NCBI RefSeq assembly: GCF_003991155.1
Contig: NZ_CP031295.1
DNA length: 64,000 nt
From: Escherichia coli
GTDB taxonomy: Bacteria; Pseudomonadota; Gammaproteobacteria; Enterobacterales; Enterobacteriaceae
Direction: 5' to 3' (one strand)
The notes beneath the pieces were generated by a model that had not been told where the DNA came from, made no database searches, and saw nothing but the letters and a program-made list of their open reading frames with translations. This document shows positions 3,156 to 26,569 of this stretch, piece by piece. Position 1 is the stretch's first letter; every line of letters starts with the position of its first letter. The translations under genes were made by a program, and so were the position numbers.

Positions 3156-3336
3156 ATTAGATTCTGTTTCTGGTGGTGCTTCAGGGCGTGATATTGCGAT
3201 GGCTATAGGAACACTATCCGGACAATTTGTTGCAGGAGGAATTGGAGCAGCTGCTGGGGGTGTGGCTGGAGGTGCAATATATGACTATGCATCCACTCAC
3301 AAACCTAATCCTGCAATGTCTCCATCCGGTTGGTAA
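3133..3336 (+). pseudogene. cvaC: Colicin V precursor truncated after residue 66 by IS1 insertion/deletion
   Basis: MRTLTLNELDSVSGGASGRDIAMAIGTLSGQFVAGGIGAAAGGVAGGAIYDYASTHKPNPAMSPSG then W-stop created by IS1 end at 3332; double-glycine leader intact, C-terminal ~37 residues and cvaA/cvaB absent. Confidence 0.9.
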
Positions 3337-3346
3337 TGACTCCAAC

Positions 3347-3850
3347 TTATTGATAGTGTTTTATGTTCAGATAATGCCCGATGACTTTGTCATGCAGCTC
3401 CACCGATTTTGAAAACGACAGCGACTTCCGTCCCAGCCGTGCCAGGTGCTGCCTCAGATTCAGGTTATGCCGCTCAATTCGCTGCGTATATCGCTTGCTG
3501 ATTACGTGCAGCTTTCCCTTCAGGCGGGATTCATACAGCGGCCAGCCATCCGTCATCCATATCACCACGTCAAAGGGTGACAGCAGGCTCATAAGACGCC
3601 CCAGCGTCGCCATAGTGCGTTCACCGAATACGTGCGCAACAACCGTCTTCCGGAGCCTGTCATACGCGTAAAACAGCCAGCGCTGGCGCGATTTAGCCCC
3701 GACGTATCCCCACTGTTCGTCCATTTCCGCGCAGACGATGACGTCACTGCCCGGCTGTATGCGCGAGGTTACCGACTGCGGCCTGAGTTTTTTAAATGGC
3801 GGAAAATCGTGTTGAGGCCAACGCCCATAATGCGGGCGGTTGCCCGGCAT
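3347..3850 (-). CDS. insB: IS1 InsB (expressed as InsAB' by -1 frameshift)
   Basis: 167-aa ORF overlapping insA 3' end; ...[21 protein letters not shown]... typical InsB. Confidence 0.9.
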
Positions 3851-4044
3851 CCAACGCCATTCATGGCCATATCAATGATTTTCTGGTGCGTACCGGGTTG
3901 AGAAGCGGTGTAAGTGAACTGCAGTTGCCATGTTTTACGGCAATGAGAGCAGAGATAGCGCTGATGTCCGGCGGTGCTTTTGCCGTTACGCACCACTCCG
4001 TCAGTAGCTGAACAGGAGGGACAGCTGATAGAAACAGAAGCCAC
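3769..4044 (-). CDS. insA: IS1 InsA
   Basis: 91-aa [43 protein letters not shown]... zinc-finger/HTH InsA. Confidence 0.95.
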
Positions 4045-4447
4045 TGGAGCACCTCAAAAACACCATCATACACTAAATCAGTAAGTTGGCAGCATCACCA
4101 GAAGGTCTTATCCTCTTTCATCTGATGAGGTATTAATTCCTTTTTCCCCACATGCAAGATGTTTTTTTCCGGATAAAACTAATAAATTATCAATTATAAA
4201 TAAACAAAATATTATCAATGCAACATGGAAAATAGCCAGAAAAAAACAAAATTGTATTATAAAGGAATCTTTTTCACCTAAATTTGAAAAAACTCGCCGA
4301 AATGAAATCCAGAGATTTATCAGGAATGGCGGAGAGATTAAGTGTATAAGCCAGTTATCCGATAAAGAAATATCCAGCTCTTATATATCACTTTTTCATT
4401 CCCGGTTTGGAGGTACCCTACCTTGCTACGAATATGATAATCTGTTA

Positions 4448-4771
4448 ATGTTTATTTCTCACTTACGAGAACTTATGTTTGGCCATGTGCTATTCTGGGA
4501 TAATAAACCGTGTGCTATTGATATAGTACTGAAATCTGAAAGCTCATGTAATGTTTATTATGACGTTCCAAATGGTGCAGTTCTGAATGATGAGAATTGC
4601 ATGAAACTAAGTCCGGGAAGTGTCCTTATGTGGCTGAATATAGATAAAGCGCGAAGGTATTGTCAGGATAATAATAAAAAGATGATATATTCTATCGGTG
4701 CATTCAGACCTGAATGGAAATATAAACTACTATGGTCTGTTCCCTGTAAGGTTGGTAAATGCTTATGTTAG
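4448..4771 (+). CDS. Hypothetical protein / possible decayed gene in AT-rich segment
   Basis: 107-aa ORF in ~1.3 kb of AT-rich DNA between IS1 and int; upstream frames contain further short ORF pieces suggesting a frameshifted relic; no family recognised. Confidence 0.2.
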   Translation: MFISHLRELMFGHVLFWDNKPCAIDIVLKSESSCNVYYDVPNGAVLNDENCMKLSPGSVLMWLNIDKARRYCQDNNKKMIYSIGAFRPEWKYKLLWSVPCKVGKCLC

Positions 4772-5453
4772 AATATGTATAAAGGTAAGTAACTATATAA
4801 GAGCGTCCAGTCTGCAAATACTCCTCTAAACATGGAGGAGTAGATTTATAATATCATAACATTTACTAAATCGTTTTACATTAATTTCAAATTTGAAATT
4901 AATGTATTTTGATAACTATATATTTTTGATTCCGAAAACAGACATTTCTTTCTTTGAGTCAGGGCTTACACTCAAAATATTAATATTGTTTGTGTGAAGA
5001 CATATTATTCAATAACGATGGTGAGAAATATCTGTACTTTTTCGCATAATCTAACCATTTACTTAATTGTTCATTCTGTGAACAGAATCTGTTTGTTATG
5101 TATCAGGTTGATGATGTGATTAAGCAGTCTGAAACCAGAGGAATATGGAGTCAGAAATTTTCAGTTGTCTTTTAAGGGCGTCTGCAGGATTTTTTCTCCG
5201 TTTCTGCCTGTCCTGGCATTACCCCAATTCTCCCAAAAACGGTAAACCAGCCCTCAGCCCGCACCATGACTGGCTTAAGACGGGATCCCAGCGGCAAAAT
5301 GCGCCTTTATGTATTTGGTTTTACCCGCAATAATGCGTGATAATCAAACAAAAGGATCCGCGCGCTGCGATTTATTGTCGTGGAAGGATCCGGGCGTTCA
5401 GGTCAGAATACCTGTATCCATAAACAGTGCGTGTGCTACGTGAAAAATAACTC

Positions 5454-6194
5454 ATGAACAATGTCATTCCCCTGCAGAATTCACCTGAACGCGTCTCCCT
5501 GTTACCCATTGCGCCGGGGGTGGATTTTGCAACAGCGCTCTCCCTGAGAAGAATGGCCACTTCCACGGGGGCCACACCGGCCTACCTGCTGGCCCCGGAA
5601 GTGAGTGCCCTTCTCTTCTATATGCCGGATCAGCGTCACCATATGCTGTTCGCCACCCTCTGGAATACCGGAATGCGTATTGGCGAAGCCCGGATGCTGA
5701 CGCCGGAATCATTTGACCTGAATGGAGTAAGACCGTTTGTGCGGATCCTGTCCGAAAAAGTGCGTGCGCGACGCGGACGCCCGCCAAAAGATGAAGTGCG
5801 CCTGGTTCCGCTGACAGATATAAGCTATGTCAGGCAGATGGAAAGCTGGATGATCACCACCCGGCCCCGTCGTCGTGAACCATTATGGGCCGTGACCGAC
5901 GAAACCATGCGCAACTGGCTGAAGCAGGCTGTCAGACGGGCCGAAGCTGACGGAGTACACTTTTCGATTCCGGTCACACCACACACCTTCCGGCACAGCT
6001 ATATCATGCACATGCTCTATCACCGCCAGCCCCGGAAAGTCATCCAGGCACTGGTTGGTCACAGGGATCCACGTTCGATGGAGGTTTATACCAGAGTGTT
6101 TGCACTGGATATGGCTGCCACGCTGGCAGTGCCTTTCACAGGTGACGGGCGGGATGCTGCGGAGATCCTGCGTACACTGCCTCCCCTGAGGTGA
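5454..6194 (+). CDS. int: Tyrosine site-specific recombinase (phage-integrase family) associated with RepFIB
   Basis: 246-aa ORF with ...[39 protein letters not shown]... (R-H-R-Y catalytic region pattern); adjacent to RepFIB repA as in P307/ColV plasmids. Confidence 0.75.
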
Positions 6195-25190: not shown

Positions 25191-25263
25191 CCGGTATTCC
25201 TTTACAACAAAGGTACGCTGATATCAACATGGCCGCTGACAGCCAAGTTGATATCATATAATA

Positions 25264-25322
25264 CACGACATAATCTGTAGTCAGGGAGGATAGACTCTTT
25301 ACTGACTACAGATTATGTCGTG
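25264..25322. repeat. Orphan inverted pair of RepFIB-like iterons
   Basis: CACGACATAATCTGTAGTCAG - 17 bp - CTGACTACAGATTATGTCGTG, perfect 21-bp arms; core CTGTAGTCAG is the same as in the inverted iteron pair at 6435..6471 beside repA. Confidence 0.6.
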
Positions 25323-25674
25323 TTCCGTGCTCATTTCCTCAAAAAAATACAAGAAAAGAATTAGTATTCTAACAAAAAGTGAAATAAATTGTATCAAACT
25401 CCCTCTTTTAATCCTGTTGAGTAAATCAGCTTTTGCAATAGGATTGAAAGAGTGTAAGTGGAATCTCTTCCGGATACTCGTTACCACCGTGGCTAGAATA
25501 TCTACGGCTGCGGGCCAGTAATAGATTAAGTGATAACAGCTGTCTGGAAATGTAGGGGCGTATCCACTAATCATAATCATTGTGAGATAAATATTACGGG
25601 GCATTTTATAATGAATAAAGGTGATGCTGCCAACTTACTGATTTAGTGTATGATGGTGTTTTTGAGGTGCTCCA

Positions 25675-25950
25675 GTGGCTTCTGTTTCTATCAGCTGTCC
25701 CTCCTGTTCAGCTACTGACGGGGTGGTGCGTAACGGCAAAAGCACCGCCGGACATCAGCGCTATCTCTGCTCTCACTGCCGTAAAACATGGCAACTGCAG
25801 TTCACTTACACCGCTTCTCAACCCGGTACGCACCAGAAAATCATTGATATGGCCATGAATGGCGTTGGATGCCGGGCAACTGCACGCATTATGGGCGTTA
25901 GCCTCAACACGATTTTACGTCACTTAAAAAACTCAGGCCGCAGTCGGTAA
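25675..25950 (+). CDS. insA: IS1 InsA
   Basis: 91-aa InsA ORF (variant …[11 protein letters not shown]…). Confidence 0.95.
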
Positions 25951-25994
25951 CCTCGCGCATACAGCCGGGCAGTGACGTCATCGTCTGCGCGGAA

Positions 25995-26372
25995 ATGGAC
26001 GAACAGTGGGGATACGTCGGGGCTAAATCGCGCCAGCGCTGGCTGTTTTACGCGTATGACAGGCTCCGGAAGACGGTTGTTGCGCACGTATTCGGTGAAC
26101 GCACTATGGCGACGCTGGGGCGTCTTATGAGCCTGCTGTCACCCTTTGACGTGGTGATATGGATGACGGATGGCTGGCCGCTGTATGAATCCCGCCTGAA
26201 GGGAAAGCTGCACGTAATCAGCAAGCGATATACGCAGCGAATTGAGCGGCATAACCTGAATCTGAGGCAGCACCTGGCACGGCTGGGACGGAAGTCGCTG
26301 TCGTTCTCAAAATCGGTGGAGCTGCATGACAAAGTCATCGGGCATTATCTGAACATAAAACACTATCAATAA
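25995..26372 (+). CDS. insB: IS1 InsB reading frame (listed ORF starts at internal Met; InsAB' fusion made by frameshifting)
   Basis: 125-aa [25 protein letters not shown]...; upstream part of B frame carries a TAG in this copy, upstream of the A6C slippery site. Confidence 0.8.
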
Positions 26373-26569
26373 GTTGGAGTCATTACCGCCTTGACCATCA
26401 GATAGTTATTTTGGTGCTAGGGATACTGAGTGTGAACAGTTAGCGCGCGTCCTCGCCAGTTAGCTCGCTACGCTCGGTTACACGACGGCTACGAGTACTA
26501 GTGATAATTATTGACTGAGGTATGTGCTCTTCCTGTTTCCTTTTTTGATGTGTTGCTCTCATTTTAAAC

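Follow-up and report, generated by a model that had tools for sequence, protein, structure and literature searches.

The stretch of Escherichia coli DNA analysed here, 64,000 nucleotides of contig NZ_CP031295.1 (hereafter the window), contains three copies of the insertion sequence (IS) IS1, designated IS1-A, IS1-B and IS1-C from left to right. Judged by its gene content, it belongs to an F-like IncFIB/IncFIC virulence plasmid of the ColBM/ColV type. We consider it very probable that the three copies mark the boundaries of modules that were built and trimmed by the activity of IS1 and by homologous recombination between its copies. The comparison with other plasmids documents the end products of such events, namely a deletion, an inversion and heterogeneous junctions, together with the polarity of the deletion.

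The left part of the window carries, in this order, cmi, cma, cbi, cvi and cvaC', then IS1-A, then truncated mig-14, int, the RepFIB initiator, istA' and umuC' up to IS1-B (primes denote truncated genes). To the right of IS1-B follow sitABCD, eno', crcB, a major facilitator superfamily (MFS) transporter of the shiF type, iucABCD and iutA, then IS1-C, and beyond it sopAB, sopC, the leading region and tra.

Anatomy of the IS1 copies and their flanks

Repeat finding, direct reading and end-motif searches agree on exactly three IS1 copies (no chance match is expected) at the positions given in the original prediction (Table 1), and a blastn search of IS1 against the window returned no further partial copies. 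Each copy is 768 bp long with both 23-bp terminal repeats intact, and its two ends read GGTGATGCTGCCAACTTACTGAT and ATCAATAAGTTGGAGTCATTACC without a single mismatch. IS1 encodes insA followed by insB' in the -1 frame, and an A6C slippery site yields InsAB'. The frameshift site TTAAAAAAC occupies IS positions 305-313 in all three copies, the InsB frame is open from this site to the end in each (copy C has an extra stop upstream of the shift site), and the Pfam domains Zn_ribbon_InsA, HTH_Tnp_IS1 and DDE_Tnp_IS1 are detected far above their cut-offs in 3/3. By length and end repeats as well as by the insA-insB' frameshift the copies belong to the IS1 family, in its 768-bp IS1A/B/SD group, and since the InsA domains, the shift site and an open DDE_Tnp_IS1 frame have all been kept, IS1-A, IS1-B and IS1-C are potentially active.

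IS1-A and IS1-B are direct repeats with a start-to-start spacing of 6,038 bp; IS1-B and IS1-C are inverted and enclose 15,482 bp, with the left inverted repeat (IRL) of both facing inward to the sit-iuc island. These orientations had been predicted correctly, as had the named contents of the two intervals (int, RepFIB, istA' and umuC'; sit, eno', crcB, the shiF-type gene, iuc and iutA). The copies differ from one another by 11 (A/B), 9 (A/C) and 6 (B/C) nucleotides and their InsA proteins by 1-2 residues each. The view that they are not recent duplicates of one another is borne out by their types, A being an IS1B-type variant, B an IS1A-type element and C an IS1A-type element with an IS1SD-type patch.

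A simple IS1 insertion is followed by a 9-bp (8-14 bp) direct duplication of the target, which is the footprint of an event and not of an element. The 9-bp flanks of the three copies are exactly those originally listed, and re-examination of all nine pairings of IRL with right inverted repeat (IRR) flanks, read in IS orientation at 8, 9, 10 and 14 bp, found no target duplication, own or crossed, the best match being 5/9. An apparent 5-bp extension of inverted repeat I1 past the IS1 ends matches at only 3/5 bases and was treated as chance. None of the copies thus bears the mark of a simple insertion; for copy A this is explained by the adjacent deletion described below, and comparison with the plasmid database PLSDB accounts for most of the missing duplications. 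Given a history of IS1 deletion and recombination their absence is to be expected: it is the footprint of the history of the modules and no pointer to an unusual element.

A deletion at IS1-A and an inversion of the sit-iuc island

We carried out a census of IS1 junctions in PLSDB (72,556 plasmids), using as queries chimeras of 500 + 500 bp of flanking sequence. At IS1-A the colicin V structural gene is cut, and in many other plasmids an intact cvaC extends beyond the insertion point. On the other side the remnant of mig-14 is fused directly to the IRL end of IS1-A, where a 6,040-bp deletion ends on the right: about ten near-identical plasmids, among them pTRE-2011 (NZ_ON943059.1) and no fewer than seven others with exactly this length, have 6,040 bp extra between the IRL of IS1-A and the point at which mig-14 resumes. 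Within the segment lie the remnant of an IS3-family element, ompT (an omptin gene), hlyF of the short-chain dehydrogenase/reductase (SDR) type and codons 1-77 of mig-14. The right junction of IS1-A in the window maps to position 13140 of locus L001, inside an intact mig-14 (pTRE-2011 12909-13811), and as the gene is whole in the relatives, the form seen in the window is the derived one, an IS1-adjacent deletion. The combination cvaC'-IS1-truncated mig-14 is rare, occurring in 1/72,556 PLSDB plasmids and in 1/5,426 complete E. coli genomes searched as a second set; both hits are pCREC-544_1 (NZ_CP024827.1).

IS1-A of pTRE-2011 is likewise without a duplication (CATCCGGTT vs ATTGTGGCG); an earlier deletion must have taken the remainder of cvaC and the cvaAB side. 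A further arrangement of this locus is seen in pETN48 (NC_014615.1; positions 4204-4971 of L009), in which an IS1 lies at cvi/cvaC in the opposite orientation, with its start 128 bp to the left of that of IS1-A and its junction within ompT. For cvi/cvaC this is the third form of IS1-associated deletion, and it arose independently.

The flanks of the inverted pair tell of exchange between copies. The umuC'-IS1-sitA pair seen at IS1-B is found in 816 PLSDB plasmids and the iutA-IS1-sopA pair seen at IS1-C in 271; the IS1-B junctions are old and fixed. The alternative pairing umuC'-IS1-iutA, a chimera of the left flank of B and the inverted left flank of C, is present in 52 plasmids including pS88 and pECO-824, and sitA-IS1-sopA in 2. 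In these plasmids umuC'|IRR and IRL|sitA are base-identical to the window, but they reside on separate IS1 copies. The occurrence of the same two junctions in cis (816) and in trans (52) requires at least one crossover within IS1, an inversion in which the two inverted copies recombine; nothing but recombination within IS1 can give this result. The arrangement of the window recurs in exactly reciprocal form in p537-20_1 (NZ_CP091535.1), whose order is umuC'-IS1-iutA...sitA-IS1-sopA; the four 9-bp junction sequences are all there, in the exchanged pairing. Natural plasmids thus carry the sit-iuc island in either orientation with respect to RepFIB, as the original prediction had held the inverted pair capable of bringing about, and since the pair recombines in nature, short-read assemblies cannot fix the orientation of the island. 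The crossover point in p537-20_1 could not be located by single-nucleotide polymorphisms (SNPs) within IS1, the parental copies differing at one site at which both products carry T.

Two further candidates were set aside. Plasmid pARG01 does not qualify as a second exact inversion: on its iutA side the IS1 is another variant, with 27 mismatches, and is displaced outward by 34 bp, while the second IS1 contains an internal insertion of 9 bp. Nor does p13C1065T-2 supply an ancestral empty site for IS1-B, since the match of its umuC region to the left flank is confined to umuC.

The junction between IS1 and iutA is itself variable. With its position in the window set to 0, pS88 has it at +40 bp, pARG01 at +34 bp and pECO-824 at -105 bp, and span lengths among the umuC'-IS1-iutA matches indicate further variants. 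Such heterogeneity is the pattern that would be expected of repeated deletions from IS1 ends or of re-insertions. The claim that every copy had undergone adjacent deletion or inter-copy recombination consequently holds for IS1-A, through the 6,040-bp deletion, and for IS1-C, through its variable iutA junctions; for IS1-B it stands only indirectly, through the two linkages of its flanks.

The proposal that the direct pair could excise the replicon module finds no support in the census, as the A×B deletion junction cvaC'-IS1-sitA occurs in 0/72,556 plasmids. Its counterpart, the umuC'-IS1-truncated mig-14 junction of an A×B tandem duplication or circle, was not searched, and only one database plasmid has the parent structure needed for it; IS1-associated amplification has been documented elsewhere (PMC10100714). 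The A×C inversion junction cvaC'-IS1-iutA is found in none of the PLSDB plasmids.

Mechanisms, rival explanations and the IS1-C patch

In established IS1 biology, adjacent deletion is the outcome of intramolecular replicative transposition of one IS1 end, which retains the IS and leaves no duplication, and inversion between inverted IS copies results from a RecA-dependent crossover. IS1-A lies in cvaC, and the 6,040-bp adjacent deletion afterwards brought its IRL end up against the middle of mig-14. Deletions of this kind would proceed by intramolecular IS1 transposition, one IS1 end attacking a nearby target while the IS1 itself is kept and no duplication is made. The island would have been inverted by a RecA-dependent crossover between the inverted copies, and the five-SNP patch of IS1-C, which is of IS1SD type, may derive by gene conversion from some other IS1 copy of the host.

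Several points weigh against this scheme. The assignment to transposase- or RecA-mediated mechanisms is inferred from end products only, and the deletion at IS1-A could equally be the result of homologous recombination with a transient second IS1 in mig-14; no intermediate with such a second IS1 was seen among the plasmids compared. The event that removed the duplication of IS1-B has left no direct trace, its junctions being simply old. The isoforms are all known from plasmids other than that of the source isolate. Finally, the patch in IS1-C may be an artefact of short-read polishing, and the window has an error patch elsewhere.

A different account would have the IS1-sit-iuc-IS1 segment arrive as a unit by transposition, as a compound transposon with the IS1 copies as its arms. 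Two complete, potentially active inverted copies (B and C) do bracket the passenger genes, the far outer flank varies, being sopA or other genes (pS88, pECO-824), and IS1-mediated mobility of the pColV-K30 aerobactin system was obtained experimentally, at least as the work is cited in PMC4707298. However, the outer ends of the unit lack a 9-bp duplication (GAAAAAGCA vs GCCTTGACC, 1/9 in IS orientation), and the outer flanks of pS88 and pECO-824 do not match either. The outer junction on the RepFIB side does not vary among the 816 + 52 plasmids, regardless of which end of the island adjoins it; this fits recombination within IS1 and not re-insertion, and the variable inner junction at iutA would not be caused by transposition of a unit. 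Taken over all 868 plasmids, this constant umuC' junction coexists with an opposite outer flank (sopA, or other genes in pS88, pECO-824 and pARG01) and an inner iutA junction that both vary, a combination that would fit recombination and deletion better than unit transposition. We regard arrival as a compound transposon as very unlikely.

That the odd junctions or the differences between copies are artefacts of a long-read or hybrid assembly, through misjoined repeats or mis-polishing, is also very unlikely. The window does contain a faulty region: between about 43.85 and 47.46 kb, ~56 deletions of one or two bases set it apart from pCREC-544_1, almost without exception in homopolymers or CCWGG (Dcm) motifs, and within 43850-47460 the frames from traC to traU are destroyed, leaving traC, traW and traU without long open reading frames (ORFs). 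This looks like an unpolished nanopore-type error patch and not like real pseudogenes. The changes in IS1-C, moreover, are substitutions only and run toward a common E. coli chromosomal variant, as cross-copy polishing would give. Against an artefact stand the facts that 6/6 IS1 junctions were found independently in other complete plasmids, that IS1-A and IS1-B are base-identical to the copies in pCREC-544_1 and pTRE-2011, and that across 7.6 kb the sequence flanking IS1-C does not differ from pCREC-544_1. An artefact could account for the five-SNP patch at most, not for the IS1 architecture, and construction and trimming of the modules by IS1 and by recombination between its copies remains the reading that we favour.

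The patch itself is sharply confined. Over window positions 21892-29500 only five substitutions separate the window from pCREC-544_1, and all lie in IS1-C at IS positions 265, 281, 393, 396 and 444 (window 25884-26063); they are also absent from IS1-C of pTRE-2011. For five random differences in 7.6 kb to fall within 180 bp a rough estimate gives ~5 × (180/7609)^4, or ~2e-6. At all five sites (5/5) the bases of IS1-C, 265A, 281A, 393A, 396C and 444G, are those of IS1SD, a variant commonly carried by E. coli chromosomes and plasmids, whereas at IS positions 6, 21, 561 and 715 the resident bases are kept and not those of the sole IS1SD copy compared. The patch looks like a gene-conversion tract of 180-540 bp when set against that one copy, whose changes at 6, 21, 561 and 715 may be private. 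It would thus be either gene conversion or a polishing artefact: given the error patch in the window, cross-copy short-read polishing could also have made it. A bolder view, on which we would not quite place an even bet, is that the tract is real and reflects a very recent conversion from a chromosomal or co-resident IS1SD, and that together with it the IS1-A deletion defines a rare ColBM sublineage without ompT-hlyF. If true, the window and pCREC-544_1 would form a natural time-stamped pair for measuring rates of IS1 conversion and deletion.

Clustered variation within IS1 was also observed in other plasmids. Both IS1 copies of pS88 (4048-4815 and 20338-21105 of L005) carry four changes at IS positions 357, 360, 363 and 372. 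For ColV plasmids of Salmonella Kentucky, IS1 SNPs with the same 3-3-9 spacing have been tabulated, and the same table gives a sitA deletion with an IS1 ~360 bp further on (PMC3008734). The cluster seems to be a recurrent IS1 variant patch.

The plasmid background and known systems

The features of the window are collected in Table 1.

Table 1. IS1 copies and neighbouring features, in window coordinates
Feature	Position	Strand	Basis
cvaC' (colicin V structural gene), interrupted by IS1-A after codon 66	3133..3331	+	translation MRTLTLNELDSVSGG...AMSPSG, then IS1
IS1-A (IS1B-type variant), complete, IRR end left	3332..4099	-	identical copy in pCREC-544_1 and pTRE-2011 named 'IS1B family' by the Prokaryotic Genome Annotation Pipeline (PGAP)
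truncated mig-14, 3' 223 codons + stop, first 77 codons lost	4100..4771	+	NCBIfam Mig-14, profile positions 194-298 of 298; open frame from junction
int, tyrosine recombinase, adjoins RepFIB	5454..6194	+	
RepFIB replication initiator (annotated RepB family)	6479..7456	-	identical gene annotated in pCREC-544_1 and pTRE-2011; IncFIB typing
IS21-family istA, N-terminal fragment	8202..8558	+	NCBIfam transpos_IS21, profile positions 2-104 of 294
umuC, C-terminal fragment	8816..9205	+	NCBIfam UmuC, profile positions 301-422 of 422; left flank of IS1-B 164 bp downstream
IS1-B (IS1A-type), complete, IRL end toward sitA	9370..10137	-	
sitABCD, iron/manganese ATP-binding cassette (ABC) transporter	10438..13887	+	ORFs; identical genes annotated in relatives
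enolase, C-terminal fragment	14355..14789	+	NCBIfam eno, profile positions 287-422 of 425
crcB, fluoride exporter	15130..15510	+	
MFS transporter (shiF-type)	15890..17083	-	
iucABCD-iutA, aerobactin synthesis and receptor	17156..25190	+	ORFs; pTRE-2011 annotation
IS1-C (IS1A-type with IS1SD-type patch, IS positions 265-444), complete, IRL end toward iutA	25620..26387	+	
F-type partition locus (sopA, sopB and the sopC array of 43-bp repeats), outer flank of IS1-C on the right	26663..29544	+	

The assignment to the ColV/ColBM group rests on the conserved region consisting of RepFIB, sitABCD, iucABCD-iutA and the colicin genes (cma/cmi, cbi, cvi, cvaC), all of which are present, and IncFIB + IncFIC is the MOB-suite type of the closest relatives, pCREC-544_1 and pTRE-2011. 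The genes hlyF and ompT are markers in common use for ColV plasmids. Both lie within the 6,040 bp missing from the window (L001 7100-13139) and are lost through one IS1-adjacent deletion, so that marker-based typing of 'ColV plasmids' would under-call the lineage. The census further separates ancient, fixed IS1 junctions (816 and 271 plasmids) from a recent one (1 plasmid), which is useful for lineage tracing.

The F-type centromere sopC consists of 12 tandem 43-bp repeats at 28814-29544, immediately 3' of sopB, and is an ordinary feature. In the leading region a 202-nt direct repeat with 96% identity occupies 29797-29998 and 33422-33623, its copies 3,625 bp apart.

Positions 1-25000 of the window are ~100% identical to E. 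coli IncFIB/IncFIC plasmids such as pTRE-2011, barring the single 6,040-bp gap. That plasmid has 5/6 IS1 junctions in common with the window and differs from it in having kept the 6,040 bp (IS3 remnant, ompT, hlyF, 5' mig-14) and in an IS1-C without the five-SNP patch. Among PLSDB plasmids and complete E. coli genomes only pCREC-544_1, the closest relative, is collinear with the full window. It has 6/6 IS1 junctions in common, including the rare cvaC'-IS1-truncated mig-14, and is distinguished by an IS1-C free of the patch and by leading and transfer regions that differ in patches of 95-99% identity. These patches comprise 30000-32000, 36000-36500 and 52687-64000 in an otherwise identical backbone, and distal tra (traG to traI) is only 95.5-96.5% identical; such patchiness is the mosaic recombination typical of F-like plasmids. 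The third close counterpart, p537-20_1, has the same IS1 copies, island and outer flanks (umuC', sopA) as the window, but its island is inverted.

The arrangement as such has a long history. In the accounts cited in PMC4707298 (Perez-Casal & Crosa 1984; de Lorenzo et al. 1988), the aerobactin region of pColV-K30 is flanked by inverted IS1 and by replication regions, and it is mobile. As in the window, aerobactin there lies between inverted IS1 beside a RepFIB-type replicon, with IS1 held responsible for mobility and rearrangement; as far as these citations describe pColV-K30, the island of the window differs in also having sitABCD, the eno fragment, crcB and shiF. That pAPEC-1 and pAPEC-O2-ColV carry the sitABCD/iutA-iucABCD region inverted with respect to each other was noted in 2009 (PMC2626276). 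In pEC302/04, iuc/iut and sitABCD lie between two inverted IS1 in a composite-transposon-like structure without target duplication, which is the same layout as in the window, whereas its backbone is an IncFII multireplicon with resistance genes, and neither an IS1 in cvaC nor an ompT-hlyF deletion is described for it (PMC4707298). IS1-bounded aerobactin and sit modules, the absence of duplications and inversion between ColV and ColBM plasmids are thus already published, and there is little new biology in the IS1-bounded modules of the window. Their layout and its reshuffling by deletion and inversion, described since 1984, are real but ordinary, a textbook architecture.

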